Source of the DNA: an uncultured bacterium
GTDB taxonomy: Bacteria; Fidelibacterota; Marinisomatia; Marinisomatales; UBA1611
DNA: 64,000 nucleotides
Assembly: GCA_943788175.1 (NCBI GenBank)
Contig: CALSPG010000006.1
Coordinates: 256,316 to 320,315 of the forward strand
Reading direction: 5' to 3'
Part shown: in pieces, positions 2,862 to 60,545 of the stretch
Position numbering within the stretch: position 1 is the first letter of the stretch
How the letters are laid out: each line of letters opens with the position of its first letter
Program-made: the position numbers and the translations under genes
Notes under the pieces: generated by a model
What the model was told of the DNA's origin: nothing
Database searches by the model: none
Seen by the model: only the letters and a program-made list of their open reading frames with translations

Positions 2862-4256
2862 TTAGCGACCTTTGCCAGACAAAACTACAATGACAGTTCT
2901 TATTAAAATTTTTAAATCAAGGTTTAAACTTATATTTTCAATATAATAAAAATCATATCTTAATTTTTGTCTTACATCTTCTTCTTTCAGATCAGACGGA
3001 TGCTTTATTTGTGACCATCCAGTAATACCAGGCCTAACCCTAAACCTCCTATCATAGAGTGGAAATTTCTCTTTAAGTTTTTCTGTAAAATATGGCCTTT
3101 CTGGCCTTGGCCCGACTAAACTCATTTGCCCTAAAAAAACATTAACTAATTGAGGCAATTCATCCAATCTATATTTTCTTAAGACCTTACCAAATGAAGT
3201 AATGCGAGGGTCATTATCGGTAGTCCAAACAGGGCCACTGCTTTCCTCAGCGTCAATAATCATAGATCTAAATTTATAGATCATATAAGGCTTACCTTTA
3301 AACCCAAGTCTTTCTTGACTGTAAATTATTGGACCTCTAGAAGTGAAACTAATAATTAGTGCTAAAATGGTAAAAAGTGGAAATAAGATAATTAATGAAA
3401 AAACACTCAAAATAACATCAAATAGTCTCTTCATGCCAGAACTCGACCATTGACTTTCTTGAAAATTGACCTCAATTAACGGCAAGCCTGAGATTTGCTC
3501 TGTCCTGGCTAACCCGCTGATAACTTCATATAAATCAGGCACTATCTTAATTGAAACAGGTGCACCATTTATTGCCGAAATTAATTTCATGATATGATCA
3601 TGATCCATATTATCAAGTGCTATAACTATATCAGAAACTGGGTTTTTTGAAATAATTGATTTTAATTTAGTTTCATCTCCTAAATAATTATTCAAGGAGC
3701 TAACATTTTTATTTTTTTCATCTAAAGTTCTAATTAAACCTATTACGTTATAAAGTTTTTGCCCATGCTTAATTAATTTTCCTGTTACAAACTTTGAATT
3801 ATCTCCGGTACCGATAACGATCACATTACGTTGACCGAACCCTTTCTTAAGTAATAATTTTTGAATTGAACGAACAACCCAACGTATAACCACAGTTAAA
3901 AATGAATATAATATCCAATACCTAATTATAAATTGTGATTTTATCGGACCTAGATCTACATCGACTCCCAATAAAAACACTGCAGCAGCCATCATGAAAA
4001 AAGTTATTTTTATCAGGTTTTCAGTTTCTACGAATCGAGAGGTTTGAGCATCACCCTTATAAAGGTTCGCAGACCAAAATAATAAGCACATAGTAATCTG
4101 TAAAACCAAATAAATTTTAAATACTGGATAACTTATTTCAAATTGATATAATATCAGGTCAATTACAAAATAGCCAGCGAATGCGTCTAAGATAACTAGT
4201 ATCCAGGAAACAATCCATTTGGGCACACGCACTAATAATTGATTAAATATTTCCAT
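2862..4256 (-). CDS. Polyprenyl-phosphate glycosyl-1-phosphate transferase (WbaP/EpsB-type priming sugar transferase)
   Basis: 464 aa. Has N-terminal TM helices and a C-terminal bacterial sugar transferase domain (KRLFDVILS...YKFRSM...DELPQLVNVFLGQMSLVGPRPERP). Confidence 0.85.
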   Translation of the reverse strand: MEIFNQLLVRVPKWIVSWILVILDAFAGYFVIDLILYQFEISYPVFKIYLVLQITMCLLFWSANLYKGDAQTSRFVETENLIKITFFMMAAAVFLLGVDVDLGPIKSQFIIRYWILYSFLTVVIRWVVRSIQKLLLKKGFGQRNVIVIGTGDNSKFVTGKLIKHGQKLYNVIGLIRTLDEKNKNVSSLNNYLGDETKLKSIISKNPVSDIVIALDNMDHDHIMKLISAINGAPVSIKIVPDLYEVISGLARTEQISGLPLIEVNFQESQWSSSGMKRLFDVILSVFSLIILFPLFTILALIISFTSRGPIIYSQERLGFKGKPYMIYKFRSMIIDAEESSGPVWTTDNDPRITSFGKVLRKYRLDELPQLVNVFLGQMSLVGPRPERPYFTEKLKEKFPLYDRRFRVRPGITGWSQIKHPSDLKEEDVRQKLRYDFYYIENISLNLDLKILIRTVIVVLSGKGR

Positions 4257-4441
4257 ATTATTGATTGAATAATTAATTAACTAGAAATTAACCGTCAATA
4301 ACAACTTTGGAGTGACGCCTCCAAGCTCGTCATGATGAACAAAGTTCTTTTATTTATTTTTTGACAAACTGATAGCGTTTTTTTTCGATAGGAATCCTTA
4401 AATTGGAAAATCAAAATTAGCATTCAACAACAGTAAATGCA

Positions 4442-6052
4442 ATGATTATGAAACAACAATATTCAAAACTAATTTTTCTTTCTATTTTTATTTCAAACAT
4501 TTTTGTGTTTTCACAAATGCCAATAGAGCTAAATCATCCCTCTAGTATCATACTAAAGAGATTGTCAGCACAAGGAAAAATTTCCTTAAATTATTTTGGA
4601 AATAACTCAATAAGCTCAATTGATGCAGACAAGATACTTAAAAAAAACGAAAATAAAATTTATATTAAAAGCCTACTAAATTTTAGAATCCCATATAAAA
4701 AGACATCACTTGATTCCTTAAAACAGAAAAGTAGCATCCCAAATTTTTATAGTAAAATATTTAAATCTAACGTTGATATTGAAAATAAATATTTCTATCA
4801 ATCAATATCTGACACAACATTAATATGGATTAGGCTACGTGAAGTTTTATTGAGCCAGAGTCAAAAAAATCAGCGAAACTTTCAATACCTTGACGAAATT
4901 TCTTTCAATGGTATATTTAATAATCAATTATATATTAGATCGACATTTTCAATGTTTCGACATAATGGAGATCAAATCTCAATTTTAAATAATTATAGAA
5001 ACGAATGGAAAAAATATTTCCCGGAAATTGATATGACTTTTTGGTATTTAAATAATACTTCTCTTTATTTAAAGAACCCTTTAGTGAACGTAGAAATTGC
5101 AAATAATCCTTTCTCATGGGGATGGTCATCAGGAAATTCACCAATTTTATCTGCAAAAGCCACACCGTTTAATCACCTGAGACTTTATAAAAGCTTAGGG
5201 AAATTTAATTTTGAATATTTTCATGGTAGTCTTTTAAATAAAACAATAGATGAAATTCATAATGAAAACATAAAAAACGAGAAATTTCTTTCTGGTCATC
5301 GAGCTAAATATGAGATAAACAGTAATCTTCACGCTTCAATTTCTGAACTAGTCATTTATGGAAACAGGTCGCCTGAGCTAGGTTATATGAACCCTATATC
5401 TTTTTTTTGGGCCCAGGAGCATAATCTTGGCGATCTAGATAATAAGTTAATCGCGGCTGATCTAGGGTATCGAATTGTACCTGGGTGCGTGATATATAAG
5501 ACATTACTTTTTGATGAGCTTTCTTGGAAAGATATTTTTAAAGATTGGTGGGGTAATAAATTTTCATACCAATTTGGAATATTTTTATCATCAAAAAATA
5601 TAAGCCTTCCAGACCTGAGAATTGAATATACTGCGACTAGGCCCTGGACATATACGCACCCCGATTTCTCTTATTCACACAGACATCAATCACTGGGATC
5701 TTCCGATGGCCCGGCAAGTAAAGCGCTTCTGATAGAATCTTTTTATTTACCTTCGTCAAAAATAATTTTTTATAGTGCTTTTGAGCATGTTCAAAAAGGC
5801 ATCGGTAAGGGATCTGGACTCTTTGATAATTATGACGAAAGAAATAGAGACAATGATTGGAATACTGAATTTTTACTTAAGGACAAAACTCATTCATATA
5901 AATACAAGTTTGATCTTCAATATTTATTATCAATAAATATAAATTTTAGTACTACAATTATAATTAACAGTGATGAATACATAAGCAATAACTCTGAAAA
6001 ATTAAAGAAATCAGGAACAACATTTATCGTGGGATTAGATTTTAACTGGTAA
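4442..6052 (+). CDS. Secreted hypothetical protein, possibly a capsule-assembly Wzi-like outer-membrane protein
   Basis: 536 aa with a signal peptide (LIFLSIFISNIFVFSQ). It is rich in aromatic beta-strand-like segments and sits at the edge of the polysaccharide locus. The Wzi assignment rests on context and general resemblance only. Confidence 0.3.
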   Translation: MIMKQQYSKLIFLSIFISNIFVFSQMPIELNHPSSIILKRLSAQGKISLNYFGNNSISSIDADKILKKNENKIYIKSLLNFRIPYKKTSLDSLKQKSSIPNFYSKIFKSNVDIENKYFYQSISDTTLIWIRLREVLLSQSQKNQRNFQYLDEISFNGIFNNQLYIRSTFSMFRHNGDQISILNNYRNEWKKYFPEIDMTFWYLNNTSLYLKNPLVNVEIANNPFSWGWSSGNSPILSAKATPFNHLRLYKSLGKFNFEYFHGSLLNKTIDEIHNENIKNEKFLSGHRAKYEINSNLHASISELVIYGNRSPELGYMNPISFFWAQEHNLGDLDNKLIAADLGYRIVPGCVIYKTLLFDELSWKDIFKDWWGNKFSYQFGIFLSSKNISLPDLRIEYTATRPWTYTHPDFSYSHRHQSLGSSDGPASKALLIESFYLPSSKIIFYSAFEHVQKGIGKGSGLFDNYDERNRDNDWNTEFLLKDKTHSYKYKFDLQYLLSININFSTTIIINSDEYISNNSEKLKKSGTTFIVGLDFNW

Positions 6053-29569: not shown

Positions 29570-29666
29570 TATTATAAATTATAAAAAATGGTAGAGACTT
29601 AAAACTTTATACAAAAAATAATTTTTATAATATTTTGTTAAAATAGAATTAAAATAGCACCAACAA

Positions 29667-29819
29667 TTTTTTGAATAAAAGGGAAGTTTGTTAAAATCAA
29701 ACACAGTCCCCGCTACTGTAATTGTAGAATACTAGTTTTTTATTATCCATCTTTGTTTTTACAAGGAGAAGGTAAACTAAGTTGAAACTACATAAGTCAG
29801 GAGACCTTAATTCAAAAAT
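29667..29819 (+). promoter_or_regulatory. Cobalamin (B12) riboswitch aptamer
   Basis: Conserved core aaaaGGGAAgtttgtTaAAAtCaaacacaGtCCCCGCtACTGTAa (29677-29721). Also CCAtCT...GGaGAAGG (29747-29772) and the B12 box AGTCAGGAGACC (29795-29806). The candidate P1 helix is tttttgaa (29668-29675) paired with ttcaaaaa (29811-29818). It lies directly upstream of a TonB-dependent receptor. Confidence 0.8.
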
Positions 29820-39614: not shown

Positions 39615-39688
<74 letters not shown>

Positions 39689-39733: not shown

Positions 39734-39858
39734 ACTTTATATAGAAACAGAGATGTAGTTGGAAAAGCTATTAAGGATGGAGAATGTGTATAAACATTAG
39801 ATGTGCCTCATGCATAAACTTAAAATCACAAAAATGATTGCTACTATTAGGCATTACC

Positions 39859-41714
39859 ATGTCCCGCTCTAACTCGCCCCATGTTCCGCCTGCCCCAGCA
39901 GGTTCTAATGCCAAAAGCCCACGACGATATTTGGGTGTGTTTCGGTATAGCGGTCGGGCACTTGGGCTAGTATGGACTACGCATCGGGGACTAGCGCTGG
40001 CGATGATGGCGCTGGTATTGGCTGCGGGGTTGATGCCCGCTGTAGTTGCATGGCTGGGCAAAATGATTGTTGACACAGTAGTGCTGGCGGTAGAAACACA
40101 AGCGCCCGCAGACAGGCATTTGGCGATAATGTATGTCGTTGCTGAGGCAGGTGCAATCGGCTTACTAGCCGGATTCCAACGCGGTATCGCGGTGTGCGAG
40201 TCGCTATTGCGCGCCCTGCTGGGCCAACGAGTCAATGTAATGATCCTGGAAAAGGCTGGGACATTGTCGTTGGAGCAATTCGAAGATTCGGAGATATACG
40301 ACCGTATGACACAGGCGCGTCGCGAGGCATCTAGCCGCCCGCTGGCGTTGGTACGCAAAACTTTTGGGCTGATTCAAAACTCTATTTCTATAATTGCCTA
40401 CGGAGGATTGCTGATACAGTTTTCGCCTATTGCTGTGGTGGTGCTGTTTGTAGCGGCCCTGCCCGTCTTTTTTGCCGAAGCTCGTTTCTCGGGCGAGGCC
40501 TTTCGCCTGTTTACATGGCGTACCCCTGAGCGACGCGAGCAGCTGTACCTAGAGACCGTACTGGCCCGCGAAGATTACGCCAAAGAGGTCAAACTTTTTG
40601 GCCTGTCTTCAATGCTGCTCGGACGCTATAAGGCAATATTTAAAAAGTTATTCCGCGACGACCGTAACCTGACGTCTGCGCAAAGGTTTCTGGGGTTACG
40701 TACTGGGCCTATTGGGCACGTTGGCCTTTTATGGTGCCTACGGATGGATAGTTGTAGAGACAGTTGCAGGGGTATTAACCTTGGGTGGCATGACGATGTA
40801 TATCCTAGTATTCAAACAAGGTCAGGCCGCCATAACCGCTAGCCTATCGGCAATTGGCGGCATGTACGAAGACAACCTATACCTTTCGAACCTTTATGAA
40901 TTTCTTGAGGTTCCCGTTACAAAGGATACAGGCGGTGCCAGCTCGGGACCGATACCCTAAAGACGGCATTCGATTTGAGAACGTTGGATTCACTTACACA
41001 GGCGCCGATAGCCCTACCCTGCAAGGAATAAACCTGCACCTTCAACCTGGGCAAAAACTGGCGCTGGTCGGACACAATGGTTCGGGCAAAACAACACTGA
41101 TCAAATTAATGTCTCGGCTATACGAGCCTACCGAAGGCCTAATACTGTTCGAGGGCCGCGATCTGCAGGATTGGGATATCGCTGCGTTGCAAGACAAAAT
41201 TGGCGTTATATTCCAAGATTTTGTCCAGTACCAAATGAAAGTAGGTGAAAACATCGGTACCGGAGATGTCCAGAATTTCGATGCCCAAGACCGTTGGCAA
41301 GACGCTGCAACCAAAGGACTGGCTGCGGACTTTATCGAACGTATGCCTAACAGCTACCTAACTCAATTGGGTAGATGGTTCGCTGGTGGTCAAGAGTTGT
41401 CTGGCGGAGAATGGCAAAAAATAGCACTATCGCGCGCATTTATGCGCCGGTCGGCCAATGTCATAGTGCTGGATGAACCCACCAGTGCAATGGACGCGGA
41501 AGCTGAAGCCAAAATATTTGACCACTTCCGCCAAATCACCGAGGATCAAATGGCGATTCTAATCTCACATAGATTCTCGACTGTTCGTATGGCTGATCAA
41601 ATTGTAGTCTTAGAACACGGCCAAATACAAGAGCGCGGTACGCACGAAGAATTATTAGATGCCGAAGGCGAGTATGCACGGTTGTTCAAACTACAAGCCG
41701 CAGGGTATCAATAG
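39859..41714 (+). pseudogene. Fused TMD-NBD ABC exporter (MsbA/multidrug-type half transporter) carrying two +1 frameshifts
   Basis: Three ORF pieces lie in frames 1, 2 and 3: 39838..40842, 40712..40960 and 40854..41714. The sense is continuous across the shifts. At about 40677 it reads ...RDDRNLT | LRKGFWGYVLGLLGTLAFYGAYGWIV. At about 40957 it reads ...GPIP | KDGIRFENVGFTY. NBD motifs: Walker A GHNGSGKTT, signature LSGGEWQKIALSRA, Walker B VIVLDEPTSAMD and H-loop ILISHR. Confidence 0.8.
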
Positions 41715-46208: not shown

Positions 46209-47882
46209 ATGAACTTAGTCCGAAATCTAATGTTCTATCCCTTTCAGAATAATATCAAAGGAGATATAGTAGCTGGTGTTACTGTCGGTATAATTGCATT
46301 GCCTCTAGCACTGGCTTTTGGTGAAATTTCACAGCTTGGTCCAATCGCAGGTGTATGGGGTGCAATAGCAGGTGGTGTTGTAGGAGGTCTATTTGGTGGG
46401 TGCCTTGTTGGTGTAAGTGGTCCCACAGCTCCAAAGGCTGCACAGATTGCAGCATACATGAGCTTTTTTGTTATAGGTAGCTCAAATAATCCAGATTTAG
46501 TTGCGGCTTTTTCAATCATATTTTTAAGTGGTCTGATATTAGTTTTAATATCTTTTGCAAGAATTTCTCATTTTATACATTACACACCTTATCCTGTTGT
46601 TGCTGGATTCATGTGTGGCATAGGAGTTATTGTTATACTAACACAACTCAATGCTTTTGTAGGACTTGAAGTAAAGAAGAGTATAAAAGATGTAATTATT
46701 AATATACCAGATACATTAAATAGTGCAAATATTGATGCGCTTTATGTTTCAATACCTTCACTAATCATTCTATTTTTGTGGCCCATAATTGGAAAAACCT
46801 TTTTATTTTTAAAAAAAATTCCTGCTCCCTTAACTGCACTGTTAGTTGGAACTAGTATAGCCCAGATACTTAGTCTAGACATCCCCTATATTGGAGATAA
46901 AATGGGCAATGAAGCTGCAAATGAAATTTTTTCAATTTACATCCCTGATTTAGGTCGATCTATTGAATTTATAGCCCCTGCATTTGCTTTAGCCGGACTA
47001 GCAGTATTAGATAGCTTATTAAGTTGTAAAGTTGCTGACAACATAACAGGTAATCGTCATAGTAGCGATAGAGAGACCTTTGGCCAAGGAATGGCGAATA
47101 TGGCAGCGGGATTATTTGGTGGAGTAACGACTGCAACAGCCACAATGCGTACTGTAGCCAATATTAAATTTGGAGGAAAAACTCCTCTGGCATCTATTGT
47201 CCACGGGTTAACGCTTTTAGCTGTATTACTAGGCTTAGGCTCTTTAGTAGCAAAAATACCAACTGCATGCCTGGCAGCAATTTTATTTAAAGTAGGTATT
47301 GAGATTTTAGATTATCGAATAATGCCTGTAATAAATAAACTGCCACTAAAAGATTTAATCATATTTTCAACAGTGTTGTTAATTACAGTTTACGAAGACC
47401 TAATGGTAGCGATAGCTATTGGAGTTGTTTTTGCTATTTTAAGCTCTTTAAAAGATTTGAAAAATATTATCAAAGAAAAAGAAAATTATCAATTTTTTAA
47501 CGTTACTGATTCTGATTATAAAAATGATATAAAACTTAAATCTGCAAATGATAGTAATATCAATGTTTTGTTACCAAGTGGACCATTATTTTTTGGGTCT
47601 ATTGAAAAACTAATTAAATCATACAATAATATACCAAGTGATAGCAATGTCATCATTGATATGAAGAACATAACATATGTGGACCTATCAGGTGTTTTTG
47701 GCTTGGAAGATCTTTTTAAACTCTCTCAGCTCCAAAAAAGAAAAGTAATAATAGCAAATATGAAAGATGAGATAAATAAAAGCTTTAATGATTTAAAAGT
47801 TATTGAAAATATGGGTCTTACAAATTTTTGTAAATCAAAAGAAGAAGTAATTCAAAAGATCAATAACAGTTTTTTTAAATAA
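46209..47882 (+). CDS. SulP family anion permease with a C-terminal STAS domain
   Basis: 557 aa. GDIVAGVTVGIIALPLALAFGE, at least 10 TM helices and a STAS-like tail (VIIDMKNITYVDLSGVFGLEDL). Confidence 0.85.
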   Translation: MNLVRNLMFYPFQNNIKGDIVAGVTVGIIALPLALAFGEISQLGPIAGVWGAIAGGVVGGLFGGCLVGVSGPTAPKAAQIAAYMSFFVIGSSNNPDLVAAFSIIFLSGLILVLISFARISHFIHYTPYPVVAGFMCGIGVIVILTQLNAFVGLEVKKSIKDVIINIPDTLNSANIDALYVSIPSLIILFLWPIIGKTFLFLKKIPAPLTALLVGTSIAQILSLDIPYIGDKMGNEAANEIFSIYIPDLGRSIEFIAPAFALAGLAVLDSLLSCKVADNITGNRHSSDRETFGQGMANMAAGLFGGVTTATATMRTVANIKFGGKTPLASIVHGLTLLAVLLGLGSLVAKIPTACLAAILFKVGIEILDYRIMPVINKLPLKDLIIFSTVLLITVYEDLMVAIAIGVVFAILSSLKDLKNIIKEKENYQFFNVTDSDYKNDIKLKSANDSNINVLLPSGPLFFGSIEKLIKSYNNIPSDSNVIIDMKNITYVDLSGVFGLEDLFKLSQLQKRKVIIANMKDEINKSFNDLKVIENMGLTNFCKSKEEVIQKINNSFFK

Positions 47883-48942: not shown

Positions 48943-49377
48943 TTATGTCAATTCTTCGATTGCTATGTTTGCCAACAAATCCGCTCTTTCATTTTCAGGA
49001 TGTCCGGAATGCCCTTTTACCCAAGCCCAACTAATAGAATGTATTTTAATAAGCGAATCTAGTTCAATCCATAATTCTTTATTTTTTACTTCTTTTTTTG
49101 CAGCTGTCTTCCATCCATTTTTTTTCCAATTATGTATCCAATTAGTTATACCATTTTTTACATATTTTGAATCCGTGGTAATAATCAACTCGCAAGGTTT
49201 CTTTAAATTTCTCAGAGACTCAATTACCGCTGTCATTTCCATGATGTTATTTGTAGTGTTTTTACTTGCACCATAAATTTCTTTTTCAGTCTCATCATAT
49301 CGTAATATTGCCCCCCAACCTCCAGGACCAGGGTTACCTTTACAAGCACCATCTGTAAAAATTTCTACTTTGTTCAT
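48943..49377 (-). CDS. rnhA: Ribonuclease HI
   Basis: 144 aa. [22 protein letters not shown] ... NNIMEMTAV ... [18 protein letters not shown]. Confidence 0.95.
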
Positions 49378-49390
49378 TTTGATAAAATAA

Positions 49391-51712
49391 TCATATTAAC
49401 GGTGATTCAAAAATCTCAGATCGTTTTTTTAGAAATTCTAAATTTCTAACAGATTCTTTAAGTTTAAGGTCTAGTTGAAATTTAATTCTATTTTGATCTT
49501 TATACTGACTATCTAAACTTTTCAGCTTGGAAGGGGATTGTTTAATCCTCAACTCATAATCCTTGATAGTTTTATTATTTTGTTTCATTATATCTTTATC
49601 CTTTAAAACTTCATATTCTTTATCAAGTATATCTTTTTCAATTGGAGCAATTTTCTCAGTTACACTAGCTTTTAATTCAATTAACGCAGAGCTTAAAGCT
49701 GAAAAATTTTCATGAAACTGACTTAATTTTTGATTCAAATATTTCACCTCTTTTTTTAATGAATTATGTTCCATCAATAATTTTTTTAAATCATTACTAG
49801 CGGTAAGACGATTTTCCATTTTTGCTATTTTGGCTTTAATGCCCTTTTTCTCATCAATCTGCTCAATCAAGTCATTATTTAATTTTAATTTAATTCTAAT
49901 ATTATTCTCGAGTTTAGCCCTTAATGTCTTTGCGGATTTTTTATTCTGCTCCAAATTGGATTTAAGGTTTTGAACAGATTCTTCATTTTTTCTGATCTCA
50001 TTATCAATTTTTTTTGTATCATTTTTGATTGTTTTTTTTATTTTTCTTATTGTTTTTCTACTGTATTCAATTTTTGTACAAATATTTTCTTTCACTAACT
50101 CAAGGTCTTCCATTTCTATAGAATTATTTTTACTATTATTGTCAATTTTTTCTAATTCTTTCATTCTAGGTCCAAGAGAGTCTTCTAATAAAAGTATACG
50201 GTTTGTACATTTTTGAAGGTCTGAATTAATATTTGATAAATTTCTTTCTTTTTTTACTAATAAAGAATCTATAACAGGCATATCTTTTTTATGCTCACGA
50301 TGTAAATCATTCATATTTTTCTGCAAATTCTTTTTTCGCTCAATAAAAAGTTTCATCTGTTGAGACTCAGATTTTTTCGATGCTTTTAATTCAAAAATCT
50401 TATTTTCTATAATTTCAGTCTCTTGATGTAAGTTTTTCAAATCAGATTTTTTTACATCTGCTTTCAAATTATTTTTTTTCTCACTTTGATCAAATTCTTT
50501 TTGAACTGCTTCAAAATTTGATTTCATTTTTCTTATCGTTTTATCAAGATAATCGTTTTCTTTATATTGATTTCTTAATAGCTCTAATGATTTATTTTTT
50601 TCGGTAATTAATAATTCTATAAAAGATGTGATTAAGATTTCATTCTCTTTTATTTTTTTTGAACTAGTTGAAATTGAACCATAATCATTTTTTAATTCCT
50701 TAAGCATTTTTTTTGTTGTAGATAATTCAAGCGCATAAATATTTTTTAAGGACTGAACTTTTTCACTTAACTCTTCAAAAAAAGAATGCTTTTCAACAAT
50801 CTCTGTTTCTATTTTTGAAAGATTAATACTATTCATCTTATTTTCTTTCTCTGATACCACTTTATTTTGTTCAATAATGTTGAGTTTACTTATTGTATCA
50901 GAATACTTTACCTGTGCACTTTTTAACATCTTTTCTGATGTCTTCATGTTTTCAGCAATTTCTTTTTTTGATTGTAACCTAGAAGCTATTATTGAGTCAT
51001 TTTCTTTTTTGGCTTTTATACTTTTTTGCCTTAAATCATCCAGTATTTTATAATTTTGATTTATCTCAAACTCTATTTGCGATGGATCTCTACCAATACT
51101 TATGACTTTCTTTTCATAAGATTTTAATTCTAACTCTAGAGCATTTTTTTCATTATAAAGGTTTAATTTTTTAATTTCAATATTATGAATCTCATTGTTA
51201 AGCTTTTCTGATTTTTTATTTAATGAAGTAAGTTTCATTTTTAATCCATATTTTAATTTCTCAAGCCTTTTATCCAACATATATATCTTTTTATCATGGA
51301 TTTTTATGAAGGATGAAGATTGCTCTCTTTTTTTTGTTATGTCATCTATATTAGATAAAGATTCGTTCACTACCTCTTCCCCCGTGATAATAAGTTGGTC
51401 AACTTTATTCATCCTTTGTTCTGCTTTATTTAATACTTTGGTCAAATTGTTTGTAAGCTGATTAACCTTTAACAATCTTAAATCTTCTTGATTCTTTATT
51501 CGATTTCTTAATTCCTTGAGCTTTGCTTGATAAACTGCATCTAGTTTTTTAGAGTTCTGATTATACTTTTCCTCATCTAGTTTTCTTTTGCTAAAAACAT
51601 CATTTAATTTTTCTTGTTCCTTTAATTGCACATTGATAAAAGATTTCTCAACAACATCTTTTTCTTTTAAAAGAAGTTCTTTCCCGTTTACTAATTTTTT
51701 CAATGGTACCAT
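49391..51712 (-). CDS. Giant K/E/N/I-rich coiled-coil protein (C-terminal 773 aa; probably continuous with 51648..52796)
   Basis: 773 aa of near-uninterrupted heptad-like, charge-rich sequence. No P-loop or other catalytic motif is visible. Confidence 0.6.
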
Positions 51713-52796
51713 TAATTTTCTCGTAGTTCTTTTGAGCTTTTTTTATTTTTTTATTAAAAATATTCATCTCTTTTTTCAATAATGATATTTTGTATTTTAT
51801 TTTTTTTACTTCATTTTTATGACTAGATATTTTTTTCAATAACTCTTTTTTGGTGATGTTTAGAGCTTTCTTAAGATCTACTATAGATTTTTGATGGCTT
51901 AATATTGATGCCCCCACTAATACATCAACCTGACTTCCAACGACTTCATCAGGTATTGATGACTCCATTGATTGTTTTAAAAAAGAAGCATAAGTATCTC
52001 CAGATTTGAAACTAATTTTGTTTTCTAATTCTTGAACTTTTGAAGCAGTTATTAATATTTTATCTTTTAATGCTGCTTCAAATTCCTTAGATAATGATAC
52101 TTCTGCATTTAATTGCTGGTTATAAGTGATAATTTTTGAAGATATTCTCTCTTTTAATACTTTAGACCTTTCTATATGGCTTTCATGCTTTTTTAGTTCT
52201 CTTTTTTTCTGAAATTTAAATTTTTGGATTTTTTCATTAACTTTTTTCAGCTTTTGCTCTATGTCTGAGTAATTTTTTTCATGAATTTTAATTACTGTCA
52301 AAATCTTTAACTCATCTTGCAGCAATTTTGAATTCATATCTAGAAATATTTTCTTTAGTTTTTCTTGCCTTACCTTTTCTTTATCGATTTCAACATTTTG
52401 TTCTTTTTGAATTTTTTCTATATTTAAATCTCTCTGTGTGTCTACTTCAGCTTCTTTTTGGCTAGCAATAAGCTGTGATTTTTCAATTTCTATATTTATT
52501 AATTTTTTTTCGGCATTCAAACTATTTAATTCTTTTTTCCACAATCTAATTTCACCAAGAACTTGTTTCTCCTCAAACCTTGAACTACTAATCCAAGTTT
52601 TGTTACTTATTATTTCATTTTCGTAATTACTAATCTGTAGTCTTATTTTTTCAATTTCTCTACTTTTTTCTTCCCTGACATTCTCTTCTTCTAGACCAGT
52701 TACTTTAATTTTATGATTAATTGATGCAATTTTATCATTTTCTTTTTCAATATTAGAGACCAGTGCTTCAAAAATATTTACTTTTTTATCTAATTC
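51648..52796 (-). CDS. Coiled-coil protein fragment (frame open 52796 to 51648; first canonical start is the TTG at 52544)
   Basis: Track ORF 51648..52544 begins at a TTG. The same frame stays open 84 codons further upstream (ELDKKVNIFEALVSNIEKENDKIAS...), with no ATG. The 3' end overlaps the 773-aa ORF by 65 nt in another frame. Removing one A from the A6 run at about 51690 joins them (..INGTIEK|[13 protein letters not shown]..). Confidence 0.5.
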   Translation of the reverse strand, partial: ELDKKVNIFEALVSNIEKENDKIASINHKIKVTGLEEENVREEKSREIEKIRLQISNYENEIISNKTWISSSRFEEKQVLGEIRLWKKELNSLNAEKKLINIEIEKSQLIASQKEAEVDTQRDLNIEKIQKEQNVEIDKEKVRQEKLKKIFLDMNSKLLQDELKILTVIKIHEKNYSDIEQKLKKVNEKIQKFKFQKKRELKKHESHIERSKVLKERISSKIITYNQQLNAEVSLSKEFEAALKDKILITASKVQELENKISFKSGDTYASFLKQSMESSIPDEVVGSQVDVLVGASILSHQKSIVDLKKALNITKKELLKKISSHKNEVKKIKYKISLLKKEMNIFNKKIKKAQKNYEKINGTIEKISKRERTSFKRKRCC

Positions 52797-55179
52797 TTAT
52801 ACTTATTTCTTCATGATCCTTCAATGAGTCTTTCAAATTATCAATTAACGATTCAGTTTCAAGCTTACGTTTATTAAGCTCGTTATTGTTTTCAGTATTA
52901 CCAAAATCATTTTCAATTTTTTGATTATCTAATAATTTTGAATCATCTTTTAATAGAACAATTGAGTGCTCAACTTCTTTTATAATTTTTTTATTCTGAT
53001 CTTTTTCTTTTGTTAATGTTTGGATTTTCTTATTTATAATTTTTCTTTCATAATCATACTTTTTCTTATCTTTTTGGAATCCATTTTTTTTCTTATTTAT
53101 ATTTATTAATTCATCTTTACATACATTTAGATGATTTTTATTTTTCAAATATGAAAGATAATTTAATCTTGTCTTATTTAAGCTTAATCTCAGATTATCT
53201 AATTTTTCAGGTAACGTTAATAATAGAGTTGAAATATCAAATACTATTTTTGATTCTTTTATAATTCCCTCTACTTCAATAAAACTATTATTGTTTTCGT
53301 CTACAATTTTGTTTTTAAGAAAATCGACATGATTCGTTTTAAGTTGCGAAATCGACCAATTAAATGTTTTTACATATCCATCTAGGATTATTTCAAGTGA
53401 TCTGTCTTCATTATTTTTATTAATTGCATTTACATTGAACTTTATTTTAAAAGTATCATTTTCAAATAACCGTATAGATTTTAAAATGACATAATGAAAT
53501 TCTATTAACCTTTTAAAAGCGTCAATTTCATACGTGAGAGAAAGAACAATCTTATCATTTTTTTCAATTTCATATTTCAATCCATCAGATTTAGAAGCCT
53601 CTTTTCCAATTTCTTTATCGTATATTTTTTTTGATTTTTCAAAAAATTCTAAATCTTTATATAAATCTTCTTTTAAAAATCTAACATTATTTTCTATAGC
53701 CTCTTTTTGTATTTTTTTGTTTTCTAAAATCTGAGTTTCATTCTTTAAATCTTTTGAAGTGTTATTATATTTAATTTTATGGATTTCATTTTTTATGTTT
53801 TCTAATAAATCAGAGTATTCAAAAATCTTATTTTTATAATTATTAATAATTCGTTTCTTACTTTGATTAATAGAATCAATCTCAGAATGTAGTTTTCTTT
53901 CATTCTGAATCATTTTAGACTCTCTTGATTTTATTTTTTTTAATTCTAAGAGATCTGGCTTATATGATTTAAGCAGTGTTTTTTTTAGCTTCCCACTATT
54001 GTGCATTTCGCCTTTTATAGATATTATTTTATCATCAATATCTTTTTTCCTGTCTTCGAGGTCTAACAATTCAGTTTCTAAACTTTTGTTTAAGAGTTCG
54101 TTATTAGTAATAACCTTTTTTGATATAGGTCCAAATAATTTAGATTGATGTAAAATATTATTTAACTCGTTATCATATGAAACAGTTTGAACAGCGAGCA
54201 ACTCTATCGCTTTTTCATTTTGTATAATTTTTTCATCTAAAAACAAAATTTTAGATTTTAGACTAGAGATTTCTTCGTTTATATTTTTCTTTTGAATTTT
54301 TAAACTGGAAACTTCATTTTTAAAATTAAATTTTTCATAAGTTTTCAAGATTGAGTCGTCATCATAAATATTTTTTATATAGGATTCTACTTGGTCTTTT
54401 TTATTTGATTGAATGAGAAGTTCTTTTTCAACCTTTTCAATTTTTTTCAATAAATCATTTAATGTATTGTTTCTCTTATTTTTTTCATCATTGTAATTTT
54501 TATTAATTATTGAAATTTTATCTTTAGAAGAAATAACGCTATTTTTATAATTACTTATTCGCTTAGAAAAACTTTCATTCTCTTGTAATAATTTTTTCTG
54601 GTTGTCGTAGATTTTTTCGTTATCATCATAGAGTGATATTTGAGTAATGATTAAATCTATTTTTTCTTTAACTATGCTAATTTCGTTTTTTGTCTTAATA
54701 ATATATTTATTCAATTTGCGTATTTTATTATCGGTCTCATATTTTTGTATTATTATATCATTATTAGAACCACTGCCCACAATTTTTCTAGCCATAGCCT
54801 TTACATAATCAAACTTAGTGGTCTTATATTTTATTTGATTTAACGTCTTTAATGGCAAATCTTTAAAGTTTACATGATCTACAATTTTTACTTTTTTATT
54901 TCCACCTGCAATAGTGGATGGATAATCAACTAGCCTATATTTTTTTTGAACGATTCCTTTTATTTCTTCTTTTTCTGAAACAACAAGAATCTCAAAAGCC
55001 ACCAACTTTTTCAAATGGTAATAAATTTTTTCTTTTGGGAATGATATCCTTTCTGAAATTTCAGATGCAGTCAAAGAATTTTTACCAATGCATGATATTA
55101 TTTTTTTAGGTACAGGCTTTGAAACTGCCTTAATTACGCTTTGGTCAGATAGGTTAGATATAAGGTCTTTAAAACTCAT
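52786..55179 (-). CDS. Winged-helix (ArsR-like) DNA-binding domain fused to a ~700-aa coiled-coil protein
   Basis: 797 aa. Residues ~20-85 (PKKIISCIGKNSLTASEISERISFPKEKIYYHLKKLVAFEILVVSEKEEIKGIVQKKYRL) fit the ArsR/wHTH pattern. The remainder is coiled-coil-like except for a non-repetitive insert at about aa 560-680. Confidence 0.6.
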   Translation of the reverse strand: MSFKDLISNLSDQSVIKAVSKPVPKKIISCIGKNSLTASEISERISFPKEKIYYHLKKLVAFEILVVSEKEEIKGIVQKKYRLVDYPSTIAGGNKKVKIVDHVNFKDLPLKTLNQIKYKTTKFDYVKAMARKIVGSGSNNDIIIQKYETDNKIRKLNKYIIKTKNEISIVKEKIDLIITQISLYDDNEKIYDNQKKLLQENESFSKRISNYKNSVISSKDKISIINKNYNDEKNKRNNTLNDLLKKIEKVEKELLIQSNKKDQVESYIKNIYDDDSILKTYEKFNFKNEVSSLKIQKKNINEEISSLKSKILFLDEKIIQNEKAIELLAVQTVSYDNELNNILHQSKLFGPISKKVITNNELLNKSLETELLDLEDRKKDIDDKIISIKGEMHNSGKLKKTLLKSYKPDLLELKKIKSRESKMIQNERKLHSEIDSINQSKKRIINNYKNKIFEYSDLLENIKNEIHKIKYNNTSKDLKNETQILENKKIQKEAIENNVRFLKEDLYKDLEFFEKSKKIYDKEIGKEASKSDGLKYEIEKNDKIVLSLTYEIDAFKRLIEFHYVILKSIRLFENDTFKIKFNVNAINKNNEDRSLEIILDGYVKTFNWSISQLKTNHVDFLKNKIVDENNNSFIEVEGIIKESKIVFDISTLLLTLPEKLDNLRLSLNKTRLNYLSYLKNKNHLNVCKDELININKKKNGFQKDKKKYDYERKIINKKIQTLTKEKDQNKKIIKEVEHSIVLLKDDSKLLDNQKIENDFGNTENNNELNKRKLETESLIDNLKDSLKDHEEISIRIR

Positions 55180-55412
55180 TATTAGTCGTTTGTATTTTAT
55201 TTTTTGTTATTTCTACAACATTAAAATAAAATAAACTAATTATAGAATATTAAACGTCTATAATTATAGTAAAATAATTTAGCTAAAAAAAAATATCTTC
55301 ACAATGAGTATACAATTTTATAACATTGTAAAAATATTAGATCTTATATTATTTAAAATTAAAAAAAATTTACTTTTAACTTTTGCTCGAAATTGTTTTT
55401 AAGACTTATTCT

Positions 55413-55435
55413 AAAAAAAATTACAGGCCCTGTAA
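55413..55435 (-). terminator. Rho-independent terminator of the 607-aa gene
   Basis: Minus strand: ttacagg-g-cctgtaa followed by T8 (plus-strand A8 at 55413-55420). It lies 47 nt after the stop at 55482. Confidence 0.55.
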
Positions 55436-57317: not shown

Positions 57318-60300
57318 TTATAAAGAAGTATCACCAGATATAACAAAAACATCACTGCCTAGATGGACTAAAGTCATGATAGCATATTGGCCTGATGTTT
57401 TTTTACCGTTTTTATTATTTAGTGTTGCACTACTTGATGCAGTTAAACTTACTTGACCGGCCCCGCTCTGGATAATCATGCAATTAAAACCAGTAGGAAG
57501 GTTATCGGGTATAGTGATAGAAATTGCACTACCATTTGAACAATTAATGATTGTTCCATTATCTGAAGCTGATAAATCCTTTGATGTTCCAGATTCAGTT
57601 TGAACATCTGCTCCGAAACCCGTTAAAGGACTATCGTTTAAATCGATTTTTCCTGTTCCATGAGGATCTATATCTATATTATTGTCTGATCCATCTCGTA
57701 TTATAATTGAACCAGTGTTAGAAGACCCTGTTTGCAATGTTAAATCTTTATTCCCATTTGATTTAATCGTAGGATCAGTACTACCATTTCCAACAACAAG
57801 CGTAGTTGAAGACATATCAATTTGAGTATCTGTTGAGTTAACTATAGTCTCATTATTCTCTAAACTAATACCAGCAGCATGAACTGTTGCTCCTTTATCC
57901 TGAGCCATATAAACTGCAGTAACATTTGCATCACCAAGTGTTACAGAATTATCTGCTTGCCCAGATGCACCATAACCAATGACTATCTGGTTTGTACCTG
58001 CTGCAGCTGAAGCGGCTGTACTTGCCCCAAGTAACGTATTTTTATTCCCAGTTGTAAGATCATTGGTTCCTGTATTCCCGGCATTATAACCTAATGCGGT
58101 GTTATAACCATCTGTGTCAGCTGTTCGATTAGCGTCATAAAGAGCCTCTGCTCCAATTGCAGTATTATAGTTTGCTGCAGTATTCGAATAAAGACTACTA
58201 TTTCCTGCCGAAGTATTGGATGAACCTGTACTATTTGATTTTGATGAACTAGATCCAATACCAACATTATTACTACCTTCAGAATTTTGTGTTAATGCAA
58301 CGTATCCTAAAGCAACATTCTTATCCCCAATTGTATTATTATCTAGAGTATAACTCCCAACAGCGGTATTGAATGCACCATCTGTTGTTTGGATTGCAAG
58401 AGCATTATATCCCATAGCCAAGTTCTGACTAGCTGTAGTATTTGCAGCTAAAGTATTATATCCAATAGCAACATTACCTTCTCCCGTAGTGTTGGCGGTT
58501 AATGCATTATATCCAACAGCAGTGTTCCCATCTCCAGTTGTAACCGCATCAAGCGCTGTCAGACCAACACCAGTATTATTATCAGCAGCATCTAAAGTAC
58601 CAGTATTTTGATGACCGACAATTATGGAACCTGTAAAATTTGTGCCTCCAGATTTGGAGTCTGATAATACATCTAAGCTTGAATTAGAAGCAATATATGT
58701 TCCTAAATCCGATACCGCAACTTGAACCATCGTTCCATTATCATTTAAGACTAACCTATCGGCATCAACAATAGTTGTTGATGAAGCGGATGTACCACCA
58801 TCTAAAAGATTTAACTCCGCTGTTGTCGAAGTAACCCCATCAAGAATGTTCAACTCTGATGCCGTAGAGGTAACTGATAAATCAGATAAAGCACTTACTG
58901 AACCAACTCCTTTTGCATTCAACTGCGTCTGGATATTGGAAGTAACGCCATCAACATAGTTAAGTTCTGCGGTAGTTGAAGTAACGCCATCTAGAAGATT
59001 TAACTCCGCTGCTGTCGAAGTAACCCCATCAAGAATGTTCAACTCTGATGCCGTAGAGGTAACTGATAAATCAGATAAAGCACTTACTGAACCAACTCCT
59101 TTTGCATTCAACTGCGTCTGGATATTGGAAGTAACGCCATCAACATAGTTTAATTCTGCTGCTGTCGCAGAGATTGTCGTACCATTTAAATCAAGACCGT
59201 CTACATAAGCAATCCCATCCAAATAAAGATCTTTGAACTCAATCGAGCTACTACCCAAGTCAACTTCATTATCATCTGATGCTAACCAATGAGTAATGTC
59301 TCCATTACCTATCGTTACTGTATTATTACCTTTACCTGATGCACCATAACCAATCACTGTCTGATTAGTTCCTGCGGCTGCTGAGGCTGCTGTTGAAGAG
59401 CCTAAAAGAGTGTTTTTATTACCCGTAGTAATATCATTAGTTCCTGTATTACCCGAATTATAACCCAATGCAACATTATAACCATCAGTGTCTGCTGTTC
59501 GATTAGCATCCTCTAAAGCATAGGTACCAACGGCCAAATTATATTGACTAGTCGTTGTAGAGTACAATGCTTTTCTACCAATTGCTACGTTCAAGTCTCC
59601 ACTAGTGTTGCTATTCAAAGCTCTATGCCCCAGGCCAATATTCGAATTTCCATCAATGTTTAGCCCCAATGATGAATTTCCTACGGCAACATTAAAACTT
59701 CCCGTGGTATTCACATACAAACTTTGATATCCTGAACTAGTATTATAATTACCATCTGTATTACTATTCATTGCATCTTTACCAATAGCAGTATTCCTAT
59801 CACCAGAGGTTATTGATTCAAGAGATCCAATACCTAGCCCAATATTTTCATCTGCATTATTAAGTGTCCCGGTAGTTTGGTGTCCTAAAATCATTGAATT
59901 AGAAAAATTACTTCCACCTGATTTAGCATCAGTAAGATCATCAAATTCTGCTGTAGAAGATTTTGAGTCTAATTGAGCTTGTATGTTTGATGTAACTCCA
60001 TCTACATAGTTTAATTCTGCAGTTGTAGAGGTAACGCCATCAATTAAATTTAACTCAGTCGTCGTCGCTGTCACTCCATCCAAAAGATTCAACTCCGTTG
60101 TCGTCGAAGTAACTCCATCAAGAATATTCAATTCTGTTGCCGTTGATGTGATAGCATCTATAAGCGAAGCTTGATCTGTTGTAATCCCTGTCTTCGCCGT
60201 GTTTGCTGCAACAGCAGAATTTGCCGCTACTAAATCATCTGTGTAACCAACCTTGGCGGTATTTGCTGTGATCGCAGAAGCTTGATCTGTTGTAATTCCA

Positions 60301-60545
60301 GTCTTTGCCGTGTTCGCTGCAACAGCAGAATTTGCCGCTACTAAATCATCTGTGTAACCAACCTTGGCGGTATTTGCTGTGATCGCAGAAGCTTGAGATG
60401 TTGTAATCCCTGTCTTTGCATCCAACTGCGTCTGAATATTAGAAGTAACACCATCTACATAATTTAATTCTGCCGTCGTCGCTGTCACTCCATCCAAAAG
60501 ATTCAACTCCGCTGTCGTTGAAGTAACTCCATCGAGAATATTCAA
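57318..60545 (-). CDS. Phage-tail-fibre-like / Hep_Hag-like repeat protein (intact 3' 1075 codons of a larger gene)
   Basis: Contains 11-aa ELNxLDGVTxT repeats and AELNYVDGVTSNIQTQLDAK. Two ~330-aa modules carry xNTAxGxxAL beta-roll-type repeats (NTAIGKDAMNSNT.., NTAVGYNALTANTTGEGNVAIGYNTL..). Also DADRLVLNDNGTMVQVAVSDLGTYI and a globular C-terminus. There is no T9SS CTD. The annotated Met lies inside a repeat unit, and the sequence homology continues upstream. Confidence 0.7.
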   Translation of the reverse strand: MNILDGVTSTTAELNLLDGVTATTAELNYVDGVTSNIQTQLDAKTGITTSQASAITANTAKVGYTDDLVAANSAVAANTAKTGITTDQASAITANTAKVGYTDDLVAANSAVAANTAKTGITTDQASLIDAITSTATELNILDGVTSTTTELNLLDGVTATTTELNLIDGVTSTTAELNYVDGVTSNIQAQLDSKSSTAEFDDLTDAKSGGSNFSNSMILGHQTTGTLNNADENIGLGIGSLESITSGDRNTAIGKDAMNSNTDGNYNTSSGYQSLYVNTTGSFNVAVGNSSLGLNIDGNSNIGLGHRALNSNTSGDLNVAIGRKALYSTTTSQYNLAVGTYALEDANRTADTDGYNVALGYNSGNTGTNDITTGNKNTLLGSSTAASAAAGTNQTVIGYGASGKGNNTVTIGNGDITHWLASDDNEVDLGSSSIEFKDLYLDGIAYVDGLDLNGTTISATAAELNYVDGVTSNIQTQLNAKGVGSVSALSDLSVTSTASELNILDGVTSTAAELNLLDGVTSTTAELNYVDGVTSNIQTQLNAKGVGSVSALSDLSVTSTASELNILDGVTSTTAELNLLDGGTSASSTTIVDADRLVLNDNGTMVQVAVSDLGTYIASNSSLDVLSDSKSGGTNFTGSIIVGHQNTGTLDAADNNTGVGLTALDAVTTGDGNTAVGYNALTANTTGEGNVAIGYNTLAANTTASQNLAMGYNALAIQTTDGAFNTAVGSYTLDNNTIGDKNVALGYVALTQNSEGSNNVGIGSSSSKSNSTGSSNTSAGNSSLYSNTAANYNTAIGAEALYDANRTADTDGYNTALGYNAGNTGTNDLTTGNKNTLLGASTAASAAAGTNQIVIGYGASGQADNSVTLGDANVTAVYMAQDKGATVHAAGISLENNETIVNSTDTQIDMSSTTLVVGNGSTDPTIKSNGNKDLTLQTGSSNTGSIIIRDGSDNNIDIDPHGTGKIDLNDSPLTGFGADVQTESGTSKDLSASDNGTIINCSNGSAISITIPDNLPTGFNCMIIQSGAGQVSLTASSSATLNNKNGKKTSGQYAIMTLVHLGSDVFVISGDTSL
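58800..59180. repeat. Two near-identical 189-bp (63-aa) tandem units within the fibre ORF
   Basis: caagaatgttcaactctgatgccgtagagg occurs at 58841 and 59030. About 130 nt are identical between the copies. They encode ...NAKGVGSVSALSDLSVTSTASELNILDGVTST... Confidence 0.85.

Follow-up and report, generated by a model that had tools for sequence, protein, structure and literature searches.

What is encoded by a 5.8-kb block of DNA that opens with a winged helix-turn-helix (wHTH) domain, runs on as coiled coil and holds no enzymatic motif? The block lies on the minus strand, at positions 49391 to 55179 of a 64-kb stretch of a 323-kb contig (CALSPG010000006.1) from an uncultured bacterium of the SAR406 lineage (Candidatus Marinimicrobia/Neomarinimicrobiota), as the source names attached to identical proteins indicate. 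The whole of this 64-kb stretch is called the window below. SAR406 bacteria are among the most abundant uncultured bacterial groups of the dark ocean, and little is known about their cell organisation. From the letters of the window alone, an earlier annotation (the sequence-only reading) had seen here a multi-gene system, possibly a DNA-tethered filament or scaffold. The block is one gene for a protein of 1,928 residues, and its splitting in this assembly is most likely an artefact, so the multi-gene view does not hold. As judged by alignment with its relatives, the protein is the retained cytoplasmic arm of a wHTH-PilM-coil-PilN family, related to the alignment proteins of type IV pili of the mannose-sensitive haemagglutinin (MSHA)-like type.

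The giant gene and its reading frame

Three successive stop-free stretches of 806, 382 and 783 codons, one in each frame, fill the minus strand from 55179 to 49391. The first is opened by a 797-aa open reading frame (ORF; 52786..55179, minus strand), whose N-terminus holds the sequence quoted in the sequence-only reading. When the 1,917-aa protein of a related locus (L006) is compared with the window by tblastn, the three stretches match it in order, at aa 1-783, 792-1151 and 1146-1917, which shows a single gene read in three frames. Deleting one base at 52794 and one at 51721 joins them into a single ORF of 1,928 codons with a terminal stop only. The 1,928-codon gene is intact on a second contig (L012), which is 99.5% identical to the window over 18.5 kb. 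The two copies of the gene share 99.6% of their nucleotides, and the only two indels between them are the extra window bases at 52794 and 51721. In another relative (L003, 95.8% nucleotide identity) the frame is open across both junctions, and the window again has one extra base at each. An open frame of this length would arise by chance in DNA of ~25% GC with a probability of ~1e-77, as estimated from base composition. The giant gene (49391..55179, minus strand) thus consists of 1,928 codons plus stop after removal of the two extra bases, and it encodes a wHTH followed by a giant coiled coil. The 797-aa protein of the sequence-only reading does exist as an ORF, whereas the ~1,130 further codons of coil belong to this one gene, read on in the remaining frames, and do not form ORFs of their own.

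The first +1 insertion is an extra A at 52794..52795 (minus strand), where the window reads AAGAATT and its relatives AAGATT; it is absent from L003 and L012 and ends the 797-aa ORF. At the second (51720..51721, minus strand), the window has CGAGAAAA and the relatives CGGAAAA or CGAAAAA, and reading shifts into the third frame. All five indels that distinguish the window from L012 over the 18.5 kb are +1 insertions in the window, and three genes are broken by them. Such uniformity suggests a systematic assembly error. Because all five point the same way and break three genes, the frameshifts of the window are most likely errors of assembly and not biology. Two other ways of reading the block, as three separate ORFs or as one ORF with programmed frameshifting, were rejected: near-identical and diverged relatives alike carry the gene in a single frame, and similar +1 insertions occur in two other genes of the window. 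One of these, an ABC-F-type ATPase gene (39838-41714, plus strand), is split into two ORFs by insertions at 40676 and 40953 relative to L012, and deleting both gives one ORF of 624 aa. The GC content at 40-42 kb is 48.7%, against about 30% in the remaining window. The other gene encodes a SulP sulfate permease (46209-47882, plus strand), whose N-terminus is altered by an insertion at 46247, so that the protein has 557 aa where that of L012 has 568 aa.

One observation weighs against assembly error: neither insertion site lies in a homopolymer run, so the frameshifts could be real. The gene of this strain would then be a pseudogene, or would yield a truncated 797-aa wHTH-coiled-coil product followed by untranslated remains. 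Breaks in related genes can be cited on the same side. In L001, at ~3285, 34 nt are deleted between 11-nt direct repeats, ~15 codons from the first site of the window; the gene of an NCBI metagenome-assembled genome is split at aa ~640-677 (MFL2989766/MFL2989767, our P0038/P0039); and P0068 ends at 1,770 aa where P0231 reaches 2,611. Real frameshifts are nevertheless unlikely. The contig that is 99.5% identical over 18.5 kb has the gene intact, differing there by only 22 substitutions, and at least five full-length proteins of 1,928 aa occur among the listed members of the same 90% cluster. The insertions also hit the ABC-F ATPase and the N-terminus of SulP, which is a signature of error and not of decay specific to one gene.

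Breakage of the giant gene recurs in public assemblies (L001; P0038/P0039; P0068 as compared with P0231), either as an artefact of assembly or through a real tendency to decay. In L011 (10112-13378), the hydrophobic-looking start of the ORF that follows P0087 spans a scaffold N run; the split seen there, into 714 aa and at least 1,089 aa, probably arose in scaffolding, from what is a single giant gene. Fragments of the family (P0035, P0040, P0213, P0243) bear the JGI/IMG labels "PTS system EI component," "DivIVA" and "chromosome segregation ATPase," all of which are coiled-coil artefacts. Giant AT-rich coiled-coil genes are easily shattered by assembly errors, and then mis-annotated.

Head, coil and kinship with pilus alignment proteins

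The head of the protein (aa 1-88; 54916..55179, minus strand) is its most conserved part and contains the putative recognition helix PKEKIYYHLKKL. The AlphaFold2 (AF2) model of the head, built on an alignment of 59 homologues, reaches a confidence score (pLDDT) above 90 over aa 20-85, with helices at 22-31, 38-44 and 49-61 and strands at 65-73 and 76-83. The best PDB match found for it by Foldseek is the ArsR homologue PH1932 (1uly; E 1.6e-5, root-mean-square deviation (rmsd) 1.1 A, 28% identity), which is also the best PDB match by sequence. Further Foldseek matches are 2cwe, 4g6q (Kfla_6221), NolR, HlyU, SmtB, CzrA and Phr. Pfam and NCBIfam models (HTH_20, TrmB, HTH_5 at aa 22-85, and SdpR) place a wHTH across aa 14-85, all of them below threshold. 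There is no metal-site motif: the four cysteines of the 1,928 aa (30, 687, 1657, 1700) form neither CxC nor CxxC. With the modelled fold in hand, we are confident that the N-terminus is an ArsR/HTH_20-type winged helix closest to PH1932; the sequence-only reading had already recognised an ArsR-like winged helix here. What speaks against the assignment is that the head falls short of the family cut-offs (23.1 bits vs 27 for HTH_20, PF12840; 16.6 vs 22 for HTH_5, PF01022). The relatives P0123 and P0143, tied to the window protein by profile search, do pass, at 36-37 bits.

The head is followed by a linker (aa 89-140; 54760..54915, minus strand, like all the segments below) of low conservation and low pLDDT. 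The first part of the proximal arm (aa 141-575; 53455..54759) is predicted by AF2 as continuous helices; its heptads stand above those of shuffled sequences, and it is colinear with P0231 from aa 621 of the latter. A conserved non-heptad insert then interrupts the coil (aa 576-660; 53200..53454; NNEDRSLEIILDGY..NWS.SQL), with predicted strands and a helix, and is kept in P0231. The second part of the arm (aa 661-1054; 52017..53199) carries a conserved W-ISSSRFEE..LGEIRLWKKE block, and leads to a Gly/Pro-containing, non-heptad midpoint landmark (aa 1055-1098; 51885..52016; SFKSGDTYASFL...), the proposed apex of a hairpin, in a region (1030-1100) without heptad signal. The distal arm (aa 1099-1928; 49394..51884) has no membrane helix, and its last ~110 residues are highly conserved.

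Over the first 797 aa, AF2 gives an almost unbroken helix from aa 138 onwards, the exception being an insert with strands at ~576-636 (strands 578-609). Confidence is low, and it counts against the model that it comes from a 3-sequence alignment and has a pLDDT of 52, usable for secondary structure only. The heptad a/d score has a mean of 0.416 against 0.277 +/- 0.01 in shuffles, and 11.6% of heptad windows exceed the shuffles' 99th percentile (0.8% in the shuffles themselves). Conservation peaks in the head, at aa 240-300, in the insert (560-620), at 860-900 and in the last ~110 residues. Self-BLASTP finds no internal repeats in the coil, the protein is very basic (net charge +96), and its maximum Kyte-Doolittle hydropathy of 1.13 indicates no membrane helix at any point. 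The sequence-only reading had described the remainder of the protein as largely coiled coil with one non-repetitive insert of ~120 aa, and both features stand, the insert now being placed at about aa 576-660. The insert was also tried as a relic of the ferredoxin-like domain of PilN/PilO, a candidate rejected after comparison with PilN-like tails (hhalign probability 0.1).

So long a coil calls to mind the SMC/Rad50/MukB-like ATPases, of which this could be a degenerate member with head motifs too diverged to be seen. NCBIfam models of SMC and ASRP do match weakly (E 2e-5 to 2e-3), and "chromosome segregation ATPase" is the JGI label on some fragments. However, these matches are confined to coiled-coil positions and score ~20 bits where the cut-offs exceed 500; moreover, the protein has a confidently assigned wHTH at its N-terminus and helical coil at its C-terminus. 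Within the 1,928 aa there is no Walker A, ABC signature/LSGG, hinge, zinc hook or CxxC, and neither Pfam nor NCBIfam gives a match to an ATPase family. An SMC-like ATPase is therefore hardly credible and was rejected, in agreement with the sequence-only reading, which had found no Walker motifs and set the protein apart from SMC, MukB and RecN.

The kinship of the protein was traced through its head. A HMMER search of 1.84 billion representative proteins returns 156 matches, nearly all to aa ~7-85 around the helix SFPK(E/D)KIYYH(I/L)KKL, with HTH_20 proteins of ~190 aa forming the tail of the search. The longer relatives have the same head, a (D/N)RR-rich linker and then a PilM-like domain of ~350 aa. 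The profile of this domain matches M. xanthus PilM (3jc8, E 2.5e-13), Thermus PilM (2ych, E 3.5e-5) and TIGR01175 (2.8e-5), and a PilM-PilN fusion chain (5eou) is also among its PDB matches. In short forms of 787-895 aa, ...DPKDRLNLLP comes immediately after the PilM-like domain, and then a single membrane helix and a tail that matches Pfam PilN weakly. The operon headed by one short form continues with two small membrane proteins, a secretin, a response regulator, an MshEN-type T2SSE ATPase, T2SSF and N-methyl pilins. The giant forms P0245 (2,111 aa) and P0231 (2,611 aa) have the same ends, but with 1,368-1,829 residues of coil between PilM and LNLLP, and PilO-like, PilP-like and secretin genes lie downstream of giant PilM/PilN genes. 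Since no PDB sequence match was found for the PilN-like tails, their identity rests on the motif, the membrane helix, the weak Pfam matches and the operon context. Between wHTH and PilM, the (D/N)RR repeats recur every 7-9 residues in P0068, P0087, P0091, P0100, P0110 and P0245 (e.g. DRRKSRNRRTSFQRRSNLDRR...); this linker is absent from the window protein.

The intact form of the window protein (P0034) can be followed along P0231 from end to end of the coil. Their heads are ~50% identical, and aa 154-1292 of P0034 are colinear with 621-1756 of P0231 (25% identity over about 1,190 aa, E 3e-33), as are aa 1708-1912 with 2172-2376 in a second block (E 9e-9). Landmarks common to both are QNEKAIEL, NN.DRS..WS.SQL, W-I..S....LW..E, the midpoint D.Y..F and L..PL..L. 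The marks by which the family is recognised are thus all found in the window protein: the SFPK(E/D)KIYYH(I/L)KKL head helix, the colinear coil, the NN.DRS..WS.SQL insert and the midpoint D.Y..F. A PilM domain (TIGR01175/PF11104) is not detected in it by Pfam or NCBIfam; the alignment with P0231 jumps from aa ~113 to 621, and at most a ~60-aa tail of the domain remains. Searched for PilN (PF05137) features, the protein has no LNLLP and no hydrophobic window, and it ends ~45 aa before the LNLLP point of P0231. On this comparison the window protein corresponds to P0231 without its linker and PilM region and without the final ~235 residues, which comprise LNLLP, the membrane helix and the PilN-like tail.

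The short linker of the window protein (aa 89-140) may be the scar of the deleted PilM domain: aa 90-154 resemble the C-terminal tail of the PilM domain of P0245, with a z of 4.0 that is reached by 2 of 300 shuffles, and the likeness to P0231 and P0126 is not significant. The PilM/PilN-bearing P0068/P0231 and the PilM-less P0063 both lie directly downstream of orthologous M13 peptidase genes, with 73% identity between the peptidases and 56% between the genes that precede them. The next gene is PilO-like after P0231, and rnhA after both P0063 and the window gene. A tblastn search of the window and of four orthologous loci (L004, L006, L012, L013) finds no PilM, PilN or secretin. It would therefore seem that loss in place removed the PilM domain and, at the other end, LNLLP with its membrane helix and PilN tail, together with the pilus genes downstream, while head and coil were kept full-length and conserved. 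In L008, a spacer of 1.8 kb (3785-5587; 20.5% GC, no ORF of at least 70 aa) lies between an M13 peptidase gene and a PilM/PilN-bearing giant gene.

It might be argued that a form stripped of PilM and PilN has no function, being left over from a pilus machine since lost, and that its frame is open only for want of time to decay. Both machine-defining domains and the downstream pilus genes are indeed gone, and no function can be assigned to the PilM-less form. Against decay, other SAR406 genomes hold orthologues of 1,917, 1,928 and 1,932 aa, with 36-54% identity over the full length, just upstream of rnhA-selU. Three lineages thus keep the 1,917-1,932-codon frame, its landmarks, the head and the C-terminus, in DNA of 23-25% GC where stops would build up quickly. 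Promoter blocks are also conserved, and the ratio of nonsynonymous to synonymous substitution rates (dN/dS) between the window gene and L012 is 0.22, a value drawn from only 22 substitutions. A relic is very improbable on these grounds. Because full-length orthologues are conserved in place, dN/dS is 0.22 and an open frame of 5.8 kb cannot be a chance product, the gene is by all comparative signs real and under selection. The alternative that the sequence-only reading had left to itself, of unconserved low-complexity ORFs, falls away with these orthologues, and its question of whether the architecture is conserved, and beside which genes, is answered: it is, with rnhA and selU as neighbours.

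Upstream region and neighbouring genes

A spacer of 302 nt separates the giant gene from the gene upstream and holds strongly conserved non-coding blocks, one of which, of 20 nt, is identical between lineages with only 36% protein identity. The upstream gene encodes a protein with a type IX secretion system (T9SS) tail, and 47 nt past its stop the sequence can be read as a hairpin, TTACA-GGGCC-TGTAA, followed by T8 (55413..55435, minus strand). Not called by the terminator scanner, this is likely a terminator all the same, in which case the giant gene would form a separate transcription unit. The region from 55180 to 55412 had been proposed to be a promoter of its own, but sigma-70-like sites are not above chance (36 vs 41 +/- 6 expected), and the terminator scan likewise gives no more than chance.

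Within the spacer is a near-palindrome of 20 bp, TACAATGTTATAAAATTGTA (55311..55330), 132-151 nt upstream of the ATG, which is a candidate operator or lineage-specific promoter element. It is one of just two matches to TACAA-N2-10-TTGTA in the 64-kb window. In five independent lineages, some with short and some with giant PilM-bearing forms, the 200 nt ahead of the homologous gene contain this TACAA-N(2-10)-TTGTA pattern. The upstream regions concerned are those of the window, L001, L003-L006, L009, L011, L012 and L015, and every branch of the wHTH gene family is represented. The most over-represented words in nine upstream regions are hexamers containing TTGTA, and several extra TTGTA(A) half-sites lie nearer the start codon. 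This conserved palindrome fits autoregulation by the head. It would fit equally if it were an inherited promoter element bound by another factor, which it could be, and two further points count against an operator: the spacer of the palindrome varies (2, 10, about 25 nt), and the region upstream of the gene does no more than share first place for density of TTGTA sites in the window, a modest enrichment. The "DNA-tethered filament or scaffold" of the sequence-only reading remains a reasonable guess at function, to which the conserved palindrome lends some support.

Downstream, rnhA (RNase HI; 48943..49377, minus strand; Pfam RNase_H, E 6e-51) starts 13 nt past the stop of the giant gene. The terminator scan finds no terminator-like site between the two genes, and they are probably co-transcribed. 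Past rnhA come a rhodanese/SelU-like gene and then the convergent SulP gene. The order giant gene, rnhA, selU is identical in L004, L006, L012 and L013, and, extended by SulP, this arrangement is found in three lineages of SAR406/Marinimicrobia. The neighbour upstream varies, being either a T9SS-tail protein or an M13 peptidase. The block had been placed between rnhA and a surface-fibre locus: rnhA is directly downstream as stated, and what is found upstream in the window is a set of T9SS-sorted proteins. Beside one of them (607 aa) is a 1,075-aa ORF of long internal repeats (57318-60545, minus strand; …ELNLLDGVTSTTAELNYVDGVTSNIQTQLDAK…) with no Pfam match, which is probably a surface fibre. 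The only two Rfam matches in the window are a cobalamin riboswitch (29649-29807, plus strand, 72.6 bits) and a tRNA gene (39615-39688, plus strand).

A possible DNA-anchored rod and known systems

In canonical pili, an N-terminal peptide of PilN binds PilM at the membrane, as seen in PilM-PilN peptide structures. Since the coil of the giant forms is inserted between PilM and this PilM-binding peptide, it should start and end at the same place, that is, fold back. A model of the window protein can be proposed from this. It would be an autonomous cytoplasmic protein whose head (aa 1-88) is joined by a short linker to a segmented coiled coil of about 1,790 residues. The coil would fold back at the non-helical midpoint element (aa 1055-1098), bringing both ends to the base of a rod that, at ~830 residues per arm, would measure roughly 120 nm. 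Like its dimeric ArsR-type relatives, the wHTH would bind a palindrome, the best candidate being TACAA...TTGTA in its own promoter. DNA binding is favoured because both the fold class and the nearest relatives are those of dimeric DNA-binding regulators. The protein could then act as a DNA-anchored structural strut or scaffold, probably autoregulating. The sequences show the gene structure, the conservation, the domain identities, the homology to the PilM/PilN giants and the synteny, while the hairpin topology, the DNA binding and the scaffold role are all things we infer. The combined model, in which the gene is intact and domain loss has left its product as a free-standing fold-back rod anchored by the wHTH, is somewhat favoured in our judgement.

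The midpoint landmark is kept in P0231 (from aa 1525), P0260 and P0245 (from aa 1227). Arithmetic from the alignments puts its centre at 0.51-0.52 of the coil in P0034, P0231 and P0245, at coil lengths of 1,368-1,829 aa. This central position is suggestive and consistent with a hairpin. Two considerations weigh on the other side: a landmark would also stay central if indels were scattered evenly along the coil; and the mirror symmetry of the conservation profile, which peaks at aa 1081 (r 0.59), has a p of about 0.05 and is lost after detrending. As to DNA binding by the head, a wHTH can also be a protein-binding module.

This last property is central to a different proposal, in which the protein is cytoskeletal in the manner of crescentin, FilP or Scy: a parallel dimer that polymerises, in which the wHTH would mediate protein contacts or regulation. 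The long rod of segmented heptads, its head and conserved tail, the absence of enzymatic motifs and the net charge of +96 would all suit such a role. We find it improbable, as no search reveals any sequence relation to the known coiled-coil-rich proteins (CCRPs), from which the sequence-only reading had rightly kept the protein apart. Moreover, the ancestral place of the coil as a loop between PilM and PilN argues for a fold-back rod over a filament subunit, and the ArsR-type fold and conserved palindrome favour DNA binding. The protein could alternatively still serve a pilus or secretion machine whose genes lie in another part of the genome, with its coil or its conserved C-terminus as the docking site. 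Its relatives are integral to such machines, and 64 kb of the 323-kb contig were inspected. Such service is distinctly unlikely, however: the protein has no membrane anchor and no PilM domain, there is no pilus gene in the window or in the four orthologous loci (L004, L006, L012, L013), and the conserved neighbours are rnhA and selU. The preferred reading stays that of the autonomous, DNA-anchored rod.

By this analysis an anonymous cluster of low-complexity ORFs becomes a defined family with a clear architecture. In its PilM/PilN-bearing members the pilus alignment complex is elaborated in a way not reported before, by a DNA-binding-type head and by 1,370-1,830 coil residues between PilM and PilN; our search of open-access papers and preprints found no description of wHTH-PilM fusions or of giant coiled coils in Marinimicrobia. 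The window protein is a natural experiment: the appendage has survived the machine, an argument for a function of the arm itself. A wider picture is tentative, and rather doubtful as a whole: some uncultured marine bacteria would possess type IV (MSHA-like) pilus basal bodies in which every PilM-PilN unit bears a sequence-specific wHTH and a hairpin of >100 nm that extends into the cytoplasm, and the SAR406 lineage of the window would have shed the pilus and kept the arm as a free DNA-anchored structural element of the nucleoid or cytoplasm. If true, the arm of PilM-PilN would physically couple an envelope machine to DNA or to the cell interior, and its free form would represent a class of chromosome-associated scaffold new to bacteria, one whose origin can be traced.

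Among known systems, the PilM-PilN subcomplex of type IV pili is the one to which the relatives belong, with their PilM-like actin-fold domain, LNLLP, single membrane helix, PilN-like tail and operons of PilO, PilP, secretin, ATPase and pilin genes. Fused PilM-PilN forms are familiar from GspL of the type II secretion system and MshI of MSHA pili. The family adds to these an N-terminal wHTH and, in its giant forms, 1,370-1,830 residues of coil between PilM and PilN; neither feature was found described for PilM or PilN in the literature searched. The window protein itself lacks PilM, PilN and the membrane anchor, and shares with its relatives the head and the colinear coil.

The head has its best structural likenesses in the archaeal ArsR-type proteins PH1932 (1uly/2cwe) and Phr (2p4w), at an rmsd of 1.1-1.5 A over 70-72 residues, with 28% identity to the former and 18% to the latter. 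Both consist of a wHTH and a C-terminal dimerising helix, and the window protein likewise of a wHTH and a helical extension. However, PH1932 and Phr have about 190 aa, whereas the extension alone reaches ~1,800 residues in the window protein, which has no metal-site Cys motif and falls below the HTH_20 cut-off. SMC, Rad50, MukB and RecN resemble it in their very long, interrupted coil, and its proposed central fold-back and plausible association with DNA would be further likenesses. In contrast to them it has no ABC ATPase head, hinge or zinc hook, and its contact with DNA would be made by a wHTH of the same chain. With crescentin, FilP, Scy and Ccrp it has in common a segmented heptad rod, the absence of an enzymatic domain and a probable structural role; homology to them is not detectable, and it differs by its wHTH head and its derivation from a pilus basal-body protein. 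The nearest precedent for the reuse of pilus alignment proteins is the flagellar cage of H. pylori (PMC10823254). There the PilN/PilO domains themselves were reused, whereas here it is those domains that were lost, and the lineage-specific appendage that was kept.

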